A DNA stretch of 64,000 nt from Parcubacteria group bacterium Gr01-1014_8 (GTDB taxonomy: Bacteria > Patescibacteriota > Minisyncoccia > Phycocordibacterales > UBA2100). A model generated the notes under the pieces. That model made no database searches. It had not been told where the DNA came from and saw nothing but the letters and a program-made list of their open reading frames with translations. How positions within the stretch are numbered: position 1 is the first letter of the stretch; each line of letters begins with the position of its first letter. The stretch lies in NCBI GenBank assembly GCA_007376385.1, contig VMGC01000005.1, positions 119,386-183,385 of the forward strand, given 5' to 3'. Made by a program: the position numbers and the translations under genes. Shown here piece by piece: positions 32,639 through 64,000 of this stretch.

Positions 32639-32672
32639 ATGATGAGTATATCAGAAGGGTCGAACTAATTTG

Positions 32673-32744
32673 CTCCCCGGGTAGGACTCGAACCTACAAC
32701 CAACTCCTTAACAGGGAGCTGCGCTACCATTGCGCTACCGGGGA
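32673..32744 (-). tRNA. tRNA-Asn (anticodon GTT)
   Basis: Hand-folded cloverleaf: acceptor TCCCCGG/CCGGGGA, D-stem GCGC, anticodon loop CTGTTAA, T-loop TTCGAGT. Confidence 0.85.
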
Positions 32745-60713: not shown

Positions 60714-60723
60714 GCGGATGCAG

Positions 60724-60757
60724 TGGTCCTCCCGGCAGGAATCGAACCTGCATTAGT
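60724..60757 (-). other. orphan tRNA 3'-end fragment (variable loop, T-arm, 3' acceptor strand and encoded CCA) resembling the 3' half of the adjacent tRNA-Arg
   Basis: Minus strand: CTAATGCAGGTTCGATTCCTGCCGGGAGGACCA against tRNA-Arg GTAATGTAGGTTCGATTCCTACTGGGAGCA. No matching 5' acceptor strand was found within 170 nt. Confidence 0.5.
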
Positions 60758-60897
60758 CATGCATTATCTTCCGCTGAAGATATGCGCGACCCCGCCTCGT
60801 CCGCCCAAGGCGGACTCCGGCCTTGCGAAGCTGCGCACGCTCGCTTCTCACCCCTCGGAATGGACAATCCTACCTGCCCGTTCGCTGCTTATATCTG

Positions 60898-60969
60898 TGC
60901 TCCCAGTAGGAATCGAACCTACATTACAAGCTTCGGAAGCTTGCGTTCTATCCGTTGAACTATGGGAGC
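60898..60969 (-). tRNA. tRNA-Arg (anticodon CCG)
   Basis: Hand-folded: acceptor GCTCCCA/TGGGAGC, D-arm GTTC-AACGGATA-GAAC, anticodon stem CAAGC/GCTTG, loop TTCCGAA, T-loop TTCGATT. Confidence 0.85.
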
Positions 60970-61004
60970 AGCGACTTCGGGTCCATTGAACGACGGGAGG
61001 TATG

Positions 61005-61075
61005 TGGACCTACGGGGAGTCGGACCCCGACCTCGTCCATGCCATGGACGCGTTCTACCGCTGAACTATAGGCCC
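61005..61075 (-). tRNA. tRNA-Ala (anticodon GGC)
   Basis: Hand-folded: acceptor GGGCCTA with a G3:U70 wobble (the Ala identity element), anticodon loop ATGGCAT, T-stem CGGGG/CCCCG. Confidence 0.8.
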
Positions 61076-61124
61076 CATGTGAAGGACGTGAGAAAGAATA
61101 TACTACTGGCGCGAGAGCGTCCAA

Positions 61125-61358
61125 CTAATCTTCGAGCGGGCACGTGTTTCTGACTATCGCCAAAAAAATGAGTGTACTTACGACAAAAAAAGGAGCGAAA
61201 CTAAGCAATGTGTCACTCGCTGAATGTGATGCGAGATCAAGGCGTCGAAAATAAATGACATTGCCGAGCACCCAAACGATAGTGATGAGCCATGCCTGCC
61301 ACGTAATCGGTTTCCAGCACCATCCGTTGAAGGTCTTTCTAAACCAGTGTTGGTTCAT
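61125..61358 (-). CDS. small 2-TM ORF embedded in the tRNA array (questionable)
   Basis: 77-aa ORF ending 6 nt from the tRNA-Pro 3' end. It is hydrophobic but has no support beyond the ORF. Confidence 0.2.
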   Translation of the reverse strand: MNQHWFRKTFNGWCWKPITWQAWLITIVWVLGNVIYFRRLDLASHSASDTLLSFAPFFVVSTLIFLAIVRNTCPLED

Positions 61359-61363
61359 ATTTT

Positions 61364-61434
61364 TCGGGCTGTCGAGAATCGAACTCGAGCCACATGACCC
61401 CCAGCCATGCGTACTGCCACTATACTACAGCCCG
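61364..61434 (-). tRNA. tRNA-Pro (anticodon GGG)
   Basis: Hand-folded: C1:G72 acceptor CGGGCTG/CAGCCCG, anticodon loop CTGGGGG, T-loop TTCGATT. Confidence 0.8.
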
Positions 61435-61512
61435 GCAAAAAGGCAGGCCTCCAGTCCATCGTCGGGCCGTCTGGTGAGGATGTGGCGACGCACATTCGGA
61501 GAAATTCTTTTG

Positions 61513-61583
61513 TCGGGCCGCCGGGAATCGAACCCGGTCTTTACGAACCCGAATCGTACGTACTACCGGTATACTACGGCCCG
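61513..61583 (-). tRNA. tRNA-Pro (anticodon CGG)
   Basis: Hand-folded: acceptor CGGGCCG/CGGCCCG, anticodon loop TTCGGGT, T-loop TTCGATT. Confidence 0.8.
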
Positions 61584-61744
61584 GTAAAAGAATTTCTCAC
61601 CAACTCGTTCATGCTACCTTATTTACGGCCCGACGATGGACTTGAATGCTGGCCTACAACATACCGTGATTCGTACGGTCTGTTGTTGGAGAATCGTAAC
61701 AGAATCTGTGAATATCTGCACTTCAGAAAGTGCGTGTGGTCACG

Positions 61745-61942
61745 GATAATTTCTTGCTAGAAATTTCCGCGACCCCGGCTTGGCCCGTCGGCCTCCGCCT
61801 TGCACATGCTGCGCTTCGCTCGCTACAGTGGTCAGGAATATTTTCCTTGTCGACACAAGGAAAATTTCACGACCCTGGCTCGCGGTTTCGTTTGCTAACG
61901 AAACATCGCTCCGCCTTGCACAAGCTACGCTTCGCTCGCTTG
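61745..61942. repeat. two imperfect tandem units of about 100 bp (GAAATTTCCGCGACCCCGGC…CTCCGCCTTGCACANGCTNCGCTTCGCTCGCT) directly 3' of tRNA-Val; a related motif also lies 3' of tRNA-Arg (about 60790-60855)
   Basis: Hand alignment of the three copies. Each carries a different but self-complementary hairpin after the shared motif. Confidence 0.5.
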
Positions 61943-62016
61943 TGCACCCTTCAGGATTTGAACCTGAGACCTTTCGAATGTGAATCGAACGCTCTAACCA
62001 GCTGAGCTAAGGGTGC
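61943..62016 (-). tRNA. tRNA-Val (anticodon CAC)
   Basis: Hand-folded: acceptor GCACCCT/AGGGTGC, D-arm GCTC-AGCTGGTTAG-AGC, anticodon loop TTCACAT, T-loop TTCAAAT. Confidence 0.85.
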
Positions 62017-62215
62017 GTTACGGGATTATAAAGGCTAGCGAGTGGTATTGCGAGACACAGGTAAGCAGGAGTTGGTAGTCTCGTCTATTACCATACCACC
62101 ACACCAGGTTTCCTCGATCCGACTGGTGTGGTGCGACCAATTTTTTTTCCGGTATCCGGCTTAGAAAAATGGAAGTGCCCGTGTGGTAGTATGACAAAGG
62201 TTCCTCGAAGCGAGC

Positions 62216-62300
62216 TCCTAGGTATTGAACCTGTGTTTGTTCCTCGGCTCGGAAATGCAAAAGTGCTCTTTTGCATTTCACTCGCAACGCTCGCAAATAA
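62216..62300 (+). repeat. element of about 88 nt, copy 3 (5' part diverged)
   Basis: …GGTATTGAACCTGTGTTTGTTCCTCGGCTCGGAAATGCAAAAGTGCTCTTTTGCATTTCACTCGCAACGCTCGCAAATAAA. Confidence 0.5.
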
Positions 62301-62306
62301 ATCTAC

Positions 62307-62771
62307 ATGGAGACGAAATATATCTTAGTGCCATTCGCAGCTGCTTTTGGTCTTTTTATGGTGGCGTGGCTTTTTGCTTCAATGATAGGGGTACCGTCTC
62401 CGGGCCATGCGATAACAAATTTTGATGAATGTGCAGCGGCAGGGAATTCGATAATGGAATCGTATCCAAGGCAATGCTCTGCAAACGGACAAACGTTCGT
62501 CGAAGAAATTTCGTCAGGAATGCCTGTACCAGGCGCTGTGGTGTTTAACAGCTGTGCTGTTGCAGGTTGCAGCGGTCAGCTCTGCGTCTCTGCCGTCGAA
62601 GCGGAAAATATAATGACAACGTGCGAGCATCGCCCGGAATATATTTGTTATCGCGATGCATCATGTGAGCCGCAGCAAAACGGCGAGTGCGGATGGACAG
62701 AGACGTTGGAGCTGAAACAGTGCCTTACGAACCCGCCACCCGAGGAGCCTATTGATGTCGAGATGATCTAG
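62307..62771 (+). CDS. secreted Cys-rich hypothetical protein
   Basis: 154 aa with a signal peptide and 12 Cys in the mature part. Confidence 0.4.
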   Translation: METKYILVPFAAAFGLFMVAWLFASMIGVPSPGHAITNFDECAAAGNSIMESYPRQCSANGQTFVEEISSGMPVPGAVVFNSCAVAGCSGQLCVSAVEAENIMTTCEHRPEYICYRDASCEPQQNGECGWTETLELKQCLTNPPPEEPIDVEMI

Positions 62772-62946
62772 TCGCGGCATAAGAAACTTTTTGCTACCAT
62801 TGTCCCGCACGGGCCTATATACAGGAGCCATATAGACCCTTCGTTCGAAAAGAATGTAAGCGAGCTTCCGCTCTTTTCTCATTGGGGCCTATAGTAAAGT
62901 GGCATTACGCAGCATTCGCATTGCTGAGGCAGGGGTCCGATTCCCC

Positions 62947-64000
62947 TTAGGTCCACCAAAATTGATTTGCCGAAGAAGTTGCCTCGGGGCTTCGCCCCTC
63001 GGCATTGGTTTCCGCCAAGAAATTCCAGGGGGTTTTGAATTCCGCCAAAAGCATTCCCGCCGGTTCGAGCCAATGATTGCCTTTTCGTTCAAAATCACTC
63101 AATTTCTCCTCAATCGTTTTCTTTTCCGCCATTAAAATATTTTTATTTTCTTGATACTCGGCAAGCTCCAACGCCTCTGCTAAATATGCGTCTGTTAGTC
63201 GCTCCAATCGTATTTTAATGGCGGAAATATTATCGCGGAGATTTTGAGCGAAAAGGTCTGACGAGTGGCGGGATTCCGATTGCTCGCTTTCAAGGCGAGC
63301 AAGATATTTTTCCCGCCATTCGTCGGGCAAAGAAACTTTTTGACAAAGATTTTTCACTTGCTCGGTTAGCACTTCTTCCCGCAAAAAGCGATTTTCAGTA
63401 CATTCAATAGTTTTGCTCTTGTGGGTGCAACGATAGTAAATAAATTTCAAACCACTTTTCTTTATATGTCGCTCGGCGGTTATGGCGTAGCCACATACCC
63501 CACAAGTAGCAAAGCCTAAAAACTGAAAATTCTTTGGTCCTCGCTTTTTGCGGGGTTTACCATTCGCTATACGCGCCTCTTGGATTTGGTCAAAAAGTTT
63601 CTTTGAAATCATTGGCTTATGCGATCCGGCATGCACCTCGCCACGATATTGAAAATGTCCGTAGTAAAAAGGATTAGTCAAAATATGCTCAACCGAGGCA
63701 AGAGCGAGGTGCTTGCCGGTCTTGCCAACCAAGCCGACAGAAAACATTTTGCGCTGAATACCAGTGAGCGTAAATTGTCCCGTAGCAAAAGCCCCTAAAC
63801 ACTCCTTTACTTTGCCAAAAGTTTTTCTATCAGGTTCAATCGTCCGAAGTCGTGGCTCGTTGAAATATCCGAGAGGGGCTTTTGCCGAAAGTTCACCACG
63901 ACGTATTTTTTGCCGAATACCGCGCAAAATGTTTTCTCTTAAATTGTCGGTGTAATATTTTGCTTGTCCGAAAGCGACACTCAACATAAATTTTCCTTGG
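62947..64000 (-). CDS. large serine recombinase (recombinase domain plus zinc ribbon); the N-terminal catalytic domain lies beyond the window edge
   Basis: …YYTDNLRENILRGIRQKIRRGE… (resolvase/recombinase linker region). The recombinase-domain zinc ribbon CGVCGYAITAERH…YYRCTHK. A C-terminal coiled-coil. The ORF is open to the window end. Confidence 0.75.
   Translation of the reverse strand, partial: QGKFMLSVAFGQAKYYTDNLRENILRGIRQKIRRGELSAKAPLGYFNEPRLRTIEPDRKTFGKVKECLGAFATGQFTLTGIQRKMFSVGLVGKTGKHLALASVEHILTNPFYYGHFQYRGEVHAGSHKPMISKKLFDQIQEARIANGKPRKKRGPKNFQFLGFATCGVCGYAITAERHIKKSGLKFIYYRCTHKSKTIECTENRFLREEVLTEQVKNLCQKVSLPDEWREKYLARLESEQSESRHSSDLFAQNLRDNISAIKIRLERLTDAYLAEALELAEYQENKNILMAEKKTIEEKLSDFERKGNHWLEPAGMLLAEFKTPWNFLAETNAEGRSPEATSSANQFWWT

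Follow-up and report, generated by a model that had tools for sequence, protein, structure and literature searches.

An intact tRNA-Arg gene nested within a split tRNA-Arg pseudogene, and a family of structured elements behind tRNA genes of Kaiserbacteria

Introduction

How a piece of a tRNA gene came to lie behind an intact tRNA gene, and what the structured DNA between the two may be, are the questions raised by a tRNA array of Parcubacteria group bacterium Gr01-1014_8. The stretch of DNA that was analysed, referred to here as the window, consists of 64,000 nucleotides (GenBank assembly GCA_007376385.1, contig VMGC01000005.1, positions 119,386–183,385 of the forward strand) and sits near the end of the 189.8-kb metagenome contig ERZ27284378 k139_616945. 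An initial annotation, made from the letters alone, had described five intact minus-strand tRNA genes towards the end of the window, a CCA-bearing 3' half of a tRNA gene behind tRNA-Arg(CCG), and a motif that recurs behind tRNA-Arg and tRNA-Val, and it had regarded the 3' half as the likely footprint of an element that integrates into tRNA genes. The analysis revealed that the 3' half belongs to a split tRNA-Arg(CCG) gene in which an intact tRNA-Arg gene of another allele is nested, and that the recurring motif belongs to a family of short, structured, gene-less elements associated with tRNA genes.

GreA, encoded 0.6 kb upstream of the array, was used as the query to collect 80 related loci (77–88% identity) from genomes labelled Candidatus Kaiserbacteria, Paceibacterota, or Parcubacteria; related loci are cited by L numbers. 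The same tRNA set (Val-CAC, Pro-CGG, Pro-GGG, Ala-CGC, Arg-CCG, and Ala-GGC) adjoins greA in most of these 80 loci. The gene annotation of the window covers the part from about 12 kb to the window end.

A split tRNA-Arg gene with an intact tRNA-Arg gene inside

All five minus-strand tRNA genes of the initial annotation were called by both ARAGORN and Rfam in the 64-kb window, and CCA is encoded in none of them. The CCA-bearing 3' fragment was likewise confirmed at its place behind tRNA-Arg(CCG). The accompanying claim that no 5' partner strand exists proved wrong, as a 20-nt partner lies on the other side of the intact gene, where the repeat search also picked it up as a copy of a tRNA 5' region (D6). 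Read along the minus strand, the parts of the locus are as follows.

61004–61075, minus strand: tRNA-Ala(GGC), intact (ARAGORN, Rfam); the 5' fragment of the disrupted tRNA-Arg follows 4 nt further on
61000→60981, minus strand: 5' fragment of a type-1 tRNA-Arg(CCG), 20 nt, CCTCCCGTCGTTCAATGGAC, tRNA positions 1–20
60970–60980, minus strand: leader of the nested tRNA-Arg, 11 nt (direct reading, minimum free energy fold)
60897–60969, minus strand: tRNA-Arg(CCG), intact type-2 allele, starting GCTCCCATAG (ARAGORN; Rfam, 71.5 bits)
60756–60854, minus strand: element copy A (match to covariance model R1 at 60749–60823, 37.8 bits, E 1e-6)
60755→60724, minus strand: 3' fragment of a type-1 tRNA-Arg(CCG), tRNA positions 44–73 plus CCA

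On the minus strand the 3' fragment reads TAATG-CAGGTTCGATTCCTG-CCGGGAGG-A-CCA, in which the CAGGTTCGATTCCTG region is CAGG TTCGATT CCTG. The 5' fragment reads CCTCCCG TC GTTC AATGGAC and thereby supplies the acceptor 5' strand, the D-stem 5' strand, and the D-loop. Its first 7 nt pair 7/7 with the acceptor strand of the 3' fragment, and the minimum free energy fold of 60715–61003 joins both fragments around the intervening tRNA-Arg. Two tRNA-Arg(CCG) alleles occur among the related genomes, type 1 (CCTC(C/T)CGTCGTTCAATGGA...CTGCCGGGAGGA) and type 2 (GCTCCCATAGTT(T/C)AA(T/C)GGATAGAAC...TGGGAGCA), and in no related locus were both found together. The 5' fragment matches the start of tRNA-Arg(CCG) at 20/20 positions in L027 and at 19/20 in L010 and L050. 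The 3' fragment is identical at 27–28 of 29 positions to the type-1 tRNA-Arg ends of L027, L045, and L055 and at only 24 of 29 to the adjacent intact type-2 gene, whose allele is also carried by L011, L035, L042, L048, L052, and L069. The two fragments are the first 20 and the last 29 nt of one type-1 tRNA-Arg(CCG) gene, an allele common in Kaiserbacteria. With its 5' partner present, the locus is a split pseudogene with an intact tRNA-Arg nested inside it and not a lone 3' duplicate.

The type-1 gene has lost positions 21–43 and with them the 3' strand of the D-stem and all of the anticodon arm. The missing part is replaced by approximately 225 bp, composed of the 11-nt leader, the intact type-2 tRNA-Arg, a 42-nt spacer, and element copy A. 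The left junction of this insert lies in the D-loop, and the right one in a TAATGCA microhomology between the last hairpin of the element and the tRNA variable loop; the direct repeat at copy A accordingly starts at tRNA position 44. The leader and the nucleotides preceding it are complementary to 60877–60886 and 60859–60865, downstream of tRNA-Arg, and this complementarity places the nested tRNA-Arg at the tip of a long hairpin. CCA is also encoded by intact genes, namely the tRNA-Arg of L059 and several tRNA-Ala genes including the tRNA-Ala(CGC) of the window, and an encoded CCA is therefore not diagnostic of a retro-copy.

It is scarcely credible that the two fragments make up a functional tRNA gene of the split or intron-containing kind, or a gene resembling transfer-messenger RNA (tmRNA), from which the intervening RNA is removed. 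Such a gene would agree with the perfect pairing of the acceptor strands, which the minimum free energy fold closes around the insert, and with the fact that tRNA genes in Patescibacteria often contain group I introns (PMC13011429). However, the reported introns lie at anticodon-loop position 35/36 (PMC13011429), whereas here positions 21–43 are absent altogether, which effectively refutes the proposal. Neither ARAGORN nor Infernal with Rfam called a complete cloverleaf spanning 60724–61000 apart from the nested tRNA-Arg, and the ARAGORN check for an unusual intron-containing tRNA or tmRNA, which the initial annotation had proposed, returned none that incorporates the fragment and no tmRNA anywhere in the window. 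The model tmRNA_permuted reached only 19–30 bits, against a gathering score of 47, over real tRNA-Pro genes, the model Intron_gpI gave no match in the window at E ≤ 10, and no other Rfam family matched the insert. As the anticodon arm is absent and no intron or tmRNA model matches, a functional split tRNA is excluded.

Element copies and structure of the family

Homologues of the motif in the related loci were found by nhmmer seeded with the three window copies, and the covariance model R1 was built from the resulting family with copy B in the training set and copies A and C outside it. R1 detected exactly three copies in the 64-kb window, so that the motif noted earlier behind tRNA-Arg, behind tRNA-Val, and once more in tandem is real. 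It had been listed as a side feature; it is instead the main actor at this locus, a member of a widespread family that carries antisense and sense copies of tRNA 3' ends. The two copies behind tRNA-Val and their anchor tRNA are given below.

61942–62016, minus strand: tRNA-Val(CAC), intact (ARAGORN; Rfam, 71.7 bits), anchor tRNA of copies B and C
61828–61941, minus strand: element copy B (R1 match at 61824–61917, 104.7 bits, in the training set)
61736–61827, minus strand: element copy C (R1 match at 61732–61801, 47.8 bits, E 7e-9)

Copy A belongs to a subfamily that starts with GGGGTGAGA and consists of a hairpin, AAGGCC-GGAG, helix H2 (TCCGCC/GGCGGA), GAGGC-GG, and helix H3 (GGTCGCGCAT...ATGCATGAC). 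Copy B, of the long subfamily, lies between copy C and tRNA-Val and opens with a short hairpin, the base of which is paired with the 3' end of tRNA-Val (TGCACAAGC / GCTTGTGCA), followed by AAGGC-GGAG, H2, GAGCC-AGG, H3 (GGTCGTG...CCTGACC), and CAC. Copy C stands in tandem with copy B and represents a subfamily in which H2 and H3 are short; its core shares 87% identity with that of the L012 copy behind tRNA-Val. The opening hairpins of copies B and C contain the heptamer GCGAAGC (61924–61930 and 61808–61814, minus strand), as do copies in L023 and L069; the DNA mini-hairpin formed by this heptamer is unusually stable. At its apex, H3 reads (G/T)AGCGA in many copies.

Across the family, the core combines a GNC/GNC helix of 3 bp with a GGA/GA internal loop, H2 (marked by a conserved AU bulge), a GG linker, and H3, which has a 7-bp base with a conserved G.U pair, a 3-nt bulge, and an AU-rich distal stem often containing tandem G.A pairs. 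This structure was read by hand from the sequences and evaluated on a 23-sequence MAFFT alignment (A1). Paired cells amounted to 91.3% compared to 76.1% in 500 shuffles, none of which reached the observed value; 23 of the 32 pairs showed changes on both sides, and the covariation score was 0.475 against 0.199 after shuffling. When partners were slid by 1–3 columns, pairing dropped to 31–45%. The non-canonical cells are asymmetric (G.T 56 vs. A.C 5; G.A 39 vs. C.T 8), which indicates that it is the tRNA-sense strand that folds, be it RNA or single-stranded DNA.

On the tRNA strand, a unit consists of the tRNA, a hairpin, an antisense copy of the tRNA 3' end, the three-way-junction core, and a direct copy of the tRNA 3' end, with a unit size of 90–130 nt. 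In T-type units the antisense copy spans the T-loop to the discriminator (..GGAATCGAA) and the direct copy starts in the T-loop. In E-type units, which include copies B and C and are common behind Val and Ala in Kaiserbacteria, only the last 4–9 nt of the tRNA and its trailer are involved. Measured on 61 units among the matches listed, the direct copy covers tRNA positions 56–74 (C56 to discriminator+1) with a modal length of 19 nt; the duplication starts at C56 in 32 units, ends within one nucleotide of the tRNA end in 33, and ranges from 10 to 64 nt in length.

The antisense copy is split by a hairpin into an acceptor part (b1) and a T-loop part (b2), separated by a constant gap of 29 nt. 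In all eight informative cases, in which the acceptor stem contains a G.U pair or a mismatch, b1 is the exact Watson–Crick complement of the tRNA 3' strand. An origin of the arm from the tRNA 5' acceptor strand was rejected by eight cases to none, and the arm must have been made by copying, because it complements the 3' strand rather than reproducing the G.U-containing 5' strand. The 5' extension of b1 matches the sequence after the functional tRNA and not that after the orphan copy in nine cases against two. Folding of the whole unit of L081, which is almost entirely base-paired, gave a z-score of −10.5 under DNA parameters and one of −8.1 under RNA parameters. Among the relatives and metagenome units, tRNA and core are often separated by a terminator-like hairpin with A- and T-runs, which argues against obligatory co-transcription. 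A scan of the window for intrinsic terminators returned two against 1.6 expected by chance, and the element cores did not score.

In Rfam 15, only tRNAs reached the threshold in the window, and the cores remained without a match, both in the window (E ≤ 10) and in L081 (E ≤ 5). Ribozymes and other RNA families that were considered (hammerhead, hepatitis delta virus (HDV)-like, twister, hatchet, pistol, tmRNA, Y-RNA-like, HEARO, and group I and II introns) thus received no Rfam support, and comparison by hand revealed a helix order that does not fit the HDV and hammerhead topologies. A small open reading frame (ORF) built on the conserved GGAG..ATG was rejected, as the length changes in H2 and H3 do not keep the frame, many copies have no ATG, and the variation is compensatory. 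A box C/D or H/ACA guide RNA is not compatible with the motifs and geometry. Priming of reverse transcription by tRNA, with the antisense arm as the primer-binding site, was rejected because the arm matches the genomic trailer nucleotide and not CCA, and because Patescibacteria reportedly have no group II introns (PMC13011429).

Distribution and signs of mobility

R1 identified 54 copies in 27 of the 80 related loci. Most of them (47/54) follow a same-strand tRNA at a distance of no more than 300 nt (median 46 nt), against 3.9% predicted from position alone. Metagenome contigs were further scanned with the 18-base T-type signature GGAATCGAANNNCGGAGCNATG, which yielded 123 matches on at least 120 contigs against about 15 expected by chance, a rough estimate. 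Among the matches listed, 89 of the 123 have a same-strand tRNA within 200 nt upstream, and at least 25 anticodon types are represented, including Gly, Arg, Cys, Lys, Trp, Glu, Pro, Ile, Met, Leu, and His.

Comparison of the copies revealed that cores have passed between tRNA genes. In L030, the cores of an E-type unit behind Ala-GGC and a T-type unit behind Pro-GGG are 85% identical while the flanks of each fit its own tRNA; in L005, Ala-CGC and Ala-GGC are followed by cores with 100% identity to each other; and for many cores the best partner comes from another genome, where it stands behind a tRNA of another type. Close relatives can also vary in copy number: L005 and L008 do, and they show a deletion between TTTGTGG repeats. 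L081 carries tRNA-Ala-GGC followed by a T-type and then an E-type unit; there, as in the window array, different subfamilies stand in series with the younger copy nearest the tRNA.

Members of the copy-A subfamily also occur at the ends of protein genes, on both sides of PBP2 in L047 (3935–4131 and 5770–5960) and after the greA stop in L078 (2330–2424). At these sites 35–60 nt of the gene end are duplicated, the genes are kept intact, and the orientation relative to the gene varies. The duplicate of the PBP2 C-terminus in L047 is approximately 73% identical (33/45 nt, counted by eye) and keeps the reading frame (FFNWLRDVKPEYVR vs. FFNWLRGAKPEYVN, each followed by the stop), as would be expected for an allele from another lineage.

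The inserts measure 100–250 nt and contain no ORF. Within 2.5 kb of the 123 metagenome units no recurrent protein family was found, only housekeeping clusters. A core-motif scan of IMG/VR gave 78 pattern matches, none of which fits the hidden Markov model of the family; all are chance matches, and a viral origin was therefore rejected. The full-text literature that was searched contains no description of such a family, although its coverage is incomplete and a prior description is possible. The family exists, possesses the structure described, is associated with tRNA genes, and has moved between them; it is large, present behind tRNA genes in Kaiserbacteria and on many metagenome contigs, and apparently undescribed so far.

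A different kind of duplicate was noted in L004 and L079, where plain tRNA-Ala 3' halves beginning at the anticodon loop lie 38–48 nt after an intact tRNA-Ala-CGC with no core between. These look like footprints of a different integration that targets the anticodon loop.

The nested tRNA-Pro(CGG) gene and neighbouring features

The remaining features of the array and its surroundings are listed here.

61450–61645, minus strand: tRNA-Pro(CGG) with nested inverted repeats (repeat search, sequence, leader/trailer analysis)
61512–61583, minus strand: tRNA-Pro(CGG), enclosed by the two nested inverted repeats (ARAGORN, Rfam)
61364–61434, minus strand: tRNA-Pro(GGG), intact (ARAGORN, Rfam); no element copy behind the gene by the covariance model
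62307–62771: secreted protein of 154 aa, rich in cysteine (Pfam PF27854, Heavy_Cys_CGP), located between tRNA array and recombinase element
62885–62958, plus strand: tRNA-Ala(CGC), encoding CCA
62947–64000+, minus strand: large serine recombinase gene, 501 aa, directly after tRNA-Ala(CGC) and running past the window end
32672–32744: tRNA-Asn, elsewhere in the window

Two inverted repeats enclose tRNA-Pro(CGG). The inner one (61499–61520 / 61577–61598, 22 nt) lengthens the acceptor stem by 14 bp, and the outer one (61450–61470 / 61625–61645, 21 nt) has tRNA-Pro acceptor-like ends, CGGGCCGTA ... CGGCCCGAC. Leader/trailer complementarity of 13–15 bp or more was found in about 5 of 45 tRNA-Pro(CGG) genes of relatives (L011, L023, L027), which carry tRNA-Pro 5' fragments of 9–36 nt just upstream. 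As a general tRNA feature such pairing was rejected, as it occurs in few tRNA-Pro(CGG) genes only. The repeats suggest that tRNA-Pro(CGG) is the second case in the window of an intact tRNA nested between remnants of an older copy, and the fragments suggest that new tRNA copies land inside old ones.

The motif TGnTA(C/G)GAT, which resembles an extended −10 element, is located at 61693–61701 on the minus strand. An equivalent site is present in L005, L008, L012, L015, L021, and L047, and in several genomes the motif lies 30–110 nt upstream of tRNA-Pro(CGG). A simple promoter scan is silent on it. It may be a promoter, in which case tRNA-Val and its elements would form a separate transcription unit.

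Throughout the tRNA island (60897–62958), and in most greA loci, the wobble position is always C or G; the island members concerned are Val-CAC, Pro-CGG, Pro-GGG, Ala-CGC, Ala-GGC, and Arg-CCG. In related genomes, the order, orientation, and spacing of the island vary, and it is rich in 5' and 3' fragments of tRNA genes.

The large serine recombinase is the single gene of a 1.7-kb element that occupies 62885–64000 of the window and continues in L001 (10579–12624). The element is flanked by inverted repeats of about 110 bp that include the last 42 or so codons of the gene and end in tRNA-Ala 3' sequence. The left repeat supplies tRNA-Ala-CGC with its 3' end including CCA; the right one consists of a ..CTAGGGTCCACCA fragment in inverted orientation, located 150 nt before a minus-strand tRNA-Ala-TGC at the contig end. 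The initial annotation had pointed beyond position 64,000 for the rest of a recombinase-bearing element and its repeats. Both were found there, but they complete a self-contained element at tRNA-Ala-CGC, separate from the tRNA-Arg insert. Homologues of the recombinase, complete or reduced to the C-terminal part, are present at tRNA-Ala genes in L075, L024, and L042, and among the matches listed one lies near 1 of 120 metagenome loci. The neighbouring recombinase was rejected as the enzyme that mobilises the family, since its homologues are near a handful of copies only, although it could act in trans.

Discussion

The split tRNA-Arg gene and the element family are observed directly; how the elements move can be proposed at graded strength. 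The proposal, for and against which the odds appear to us evenly balanced, is a non-autonomous, site-specific integrative cassette: the element would exchange the 3' end of a tRNA gene for the copy it carries and shift the old end aside. A duplication reaching from the T-loop to the tRNA end is the classical signature of integration into tRNA genes. It is the pattern that would arise if the element integrates in the T-loop while carrying just the segment to be replaced, and the downstream tRNA 3'-end copy would then be the displaced original. Entry would occur between T55 and C56 of the T-loop, within the palindrome TCGA/TTCGAA, with a variant entry close to the tRNA 3' end. The cassette would bring a replacement tRNA 3' end together with the hairpin and push the original end downstream as an orphan, and the tRNA would stay functional because the replacement end is supplied.

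The perfect antisense copy could fold the single strand into a duplex that mimics the double-stranded target, and a recombinase acting in trans might then recombine the folded unit with the tRNA gene, in analogy to integron attC and CTX phage attP sites. An exact inverted copy of the att core is needless for a double-stranded integrative element and is a hallmark of folded single-strand sites such as these two. The strand asymmetry, the near-total self-pairing, and the terminator-like hairpin before the core would all fit a folded single-strand site, which stays an analogy since no enzyme gene is linked to the elements. A second route may be spread between lineages by transformation followed by homologous or homology-facilitated illegitimate recombination, which is possible because both flanks of a unit are tRNA sequence. 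Copy A would be best explained by this route, given that a foreign tRNA-Arg allele arrived with the element and the junctions are irregular.

It is also possible, though we are inclined to doubt it, that the family represents a truly new class, a protein-less, self-folding, target-mimicking mobile element specific to tRNA genes. Such an element would be a single strand of 150–250 nt (DNA, conceivably RNA), base-paired almost throughout and containing an exact inverted copy of its target. It would present to a host recombinase a duplex mimic of the T-loop/acceptor region that is re-derived from each new tRNA. This element would apparently be widespread at least in Kaiserbacteria and well beyond. 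As an alternative, the three-way-junction core might be catalytic, or might be a single-strand replication or priming signal.

Several observations weigh against an integrative cassette. No recombinase, transposase, or reverse transcriptase is linked to the elements; in the annotated part of the window none was found except the serine recombinase at tRNA-Ala-CGC. Neither an excised circle nor a clean pair of empty and filled alleles with identical flanks was recovered. The junctions of copy A differ from the canonical T-loop junction. In about one fifth of the units the duplication is much longer and extends 5–54 nt beyond the tRNA end, a pattern not expected from one precise recombination mechanism. 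Nor does the proposal account for the hairpin inside the antisense copy, at the T-stem/acceptor boundary. Copies B and C have no recognisable terminator upstream in the window and are therefore probably transcribed together with tRNA-Val. Finally, a functional RNA would just as typically show G.U wobbles, tandem G.A pairs, and a core under strong conservation.

The last two points would be accounted for if the units were functional non-coding RNAs, arising when transcription continues past the tRNA, cut to size by RNase P and RNase Z, and mimicking the top half of a tRNA with a three-way-junction domain attached. Such an RNA might serve as a decoy, bind a protein, or be a module for processing or stability, and the tRNA-end duplicates would then be part of the gene and not scars. 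Compensatory changes in the conserved core, with its G.U pair kept in 21 of 23 sequences, the constant tRNA orientation, the fold z-score of −8.1, and arms that reproduce the acceptor and T-stem and end on the 3' side at discriminator+1, the RNase Z cut point, all speak for this explanation. It is the strongest of the competing explanations, but we nevertheless regard it as unlikely. A strong terminator-like hairpin precedes the element in most units and leaves no space for a separate promoter. The antisense arm is perfectly Watson–Crick paired in 8/8 cases, although an RNA helix would tolerate G.U. The element is present at only three of the seven window tRNAs and in a minority of the related loci, copies stand at protein-gene ends in either orientation, and near-identical cores at different tRNAs together with the differences in copy number look like mobility. 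A second explanation would see the units as debris of replication template-switching or fold-back repair at hairpins, that is, as sense–antisense–sense triplications with co-duplicated terminator or stabiliser hairpins as the core. Many tRNA fragments, inverted duplications, and palindromic spacers surround island tRNAs in many genomes, the junctions lie at palindromes (the T-loop TCGA and terminator hairpins), and deletion between short direct repeats is seen. Template switching would explain the triplications but not the conserved core, with its GGAG...GAG and GNC/GNC motifs and the same architecture on at least 120 unrelated contigs and at least 25 tRNA types. The constant antisense spacing of 29 nt, the covariation far above the shuffled and slid controls, and the failure of the window copies to score as terminators further render this origin improbable.

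A third explanation is the one that the initial annotation had favoured, in which the fragment is an attR-type footprint of a conventional recombinase-bearing prophage or island that entered at tRNA-Arg and was later lost or is now elsewhere. Part of it survives, as the fragment is a tRNA 3' end displaced after entry of foreign DNA. Direct duplicates of tRNA 3' ends are the classical signature of such islands, a large serine recombinase element does lie 2 kb away at another tRNA, and plain 3'-half duplicates without a core occur in relatives, for instance behind tRNA-Ala in L004 and L079. However, the recombinase element at tRNA-Ala-CGC is complete in itself, bounded by inverted repeats of its own that end in tRNA-Ala sequence, and the annotated part of the window holds no other integrase. 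Only about 140 nt of non-coding, structured DNA typical of the family lie between tRNA-Arg and the fragment, which does not agree with the footprint of a recombinase-bearing island. The 5' fragment already contradicts this origin, as the old gene was split in its middle and not at an att core. A conventional island is thus very improbable here, more so than the repair debris.

The family was also compared with known systems. Islands and cis-mobilizable elements (CIMEs) that integrate into tRNA genes enter the T-loop or the tRNA 3' end, bring a replacement end, and leave the old end as a direct repeat; successive arrivals build tandem arrays, and non-autonomous forms lack an integrase. The family shares this duplication logic, the tandem arrays, and the lack of an integrase gene inside the element. 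It differs in being only about 100–250 nt long and gene-less, in its inverted att-core copy and covarying, strand-specific fold, and in standing behind at least 25 tRNA types rather than one, with no cognate integrase seen. The resemblance to attC and CTX attP(+) is an analogy of form. It would lie in a strand-specific imperfect hairpin in which pairing of inverse core and core imitates a duplex site, in structure being conserved over sequence, in bulges on one arm, and in the gathering of cassettes at a primary site. Here, in contrast, the paired arms are the 3' end of the target tRNA itself, and an extra conserved core (H2, H3) is present. An attC site has R''/L''...L'/R' boxes (RYYYAAC ... 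GTTRRRY) and is served by the IntI integrase; the arms found here are tRNA sequence of the GGAATCGAA / TTCGATTCC type, and there is no integrase among the window genes from about 12 kb to the end. Repetitive extragenic palindromic (REP) sequences, REPINs, and Rickettsia palindromic elements are likewise short, non-coding, multi-copy hairpins that spare gene ends and whose enzyme is absent or elsewhere, but unlike them the family has sense and antisense target copies, a tie to tRNA 3' ends, and a three-way-junction core. A miniature inverted-repeat transposable element has constant terminal inverted repeats and a short target-site duplication of fixed length, whereas here each copy has inverted arms of its own, identical to the 3' end of the local tRNA, and the duplication is 10–64 nt long.

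Group IIC introns, which insert behind terminator hairpins, and the group I introns carried by tRNA genes in Patescibacteria resemble the family in their sites by stem-loops or tRNA genes and in a structured, RNA-like core. The elements are far too small by comparison, have no Rfam intron match, and duplicate the tRNA instead of interrupting it; group II introns are reported absent from Patescibacteria (PMC13011429). TIGR guide-RNA arrays of bacteria and phages consist of 36-nt units with 9-nt spacers and alternating 8–12-nt repeats in 5–15 copies beside a Nop-domain Tas gene (PMC12045711). TIGR-Tas arrays and the family have in common their occurrence in candidate phyla radiation (CPR) bacteria, tandem units, segments complementary to both target strands, and K-turn-like G.A motifs, but the present units are 90–130 nt long, stand singly or in pairs at a site, and have no Tas-like neighbour.

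The window holds two cases, Arg and Pro-CGG, of intact tRNA genes within remnants of older copies, and, should the family be what it seems, genome annotation would have to reckon with orphan tRNA halves and pseudo-tRNAs at such sites. If the units prove to be RNAs instead, they would represent a widespread, uncharacterised structured RNA that mimics the top half of the neighbouring tRNA. If the cassette proposal is true, tRNA genes in Kaiserbacteria, and probably in many other uncultivated bacteria, would be colonised and replaced by tiny gene-less cassettes, which would account for the tRNA fragments, nested tRNA genes, and allele replacements in these genomes. This would provide a concrete route of horizontal tRNA turnover in organisms thought to depend on DNA uptake, and the element may then be the third natural folded single-strand recombination site after attC and the CTX phage, here one that copies its target.

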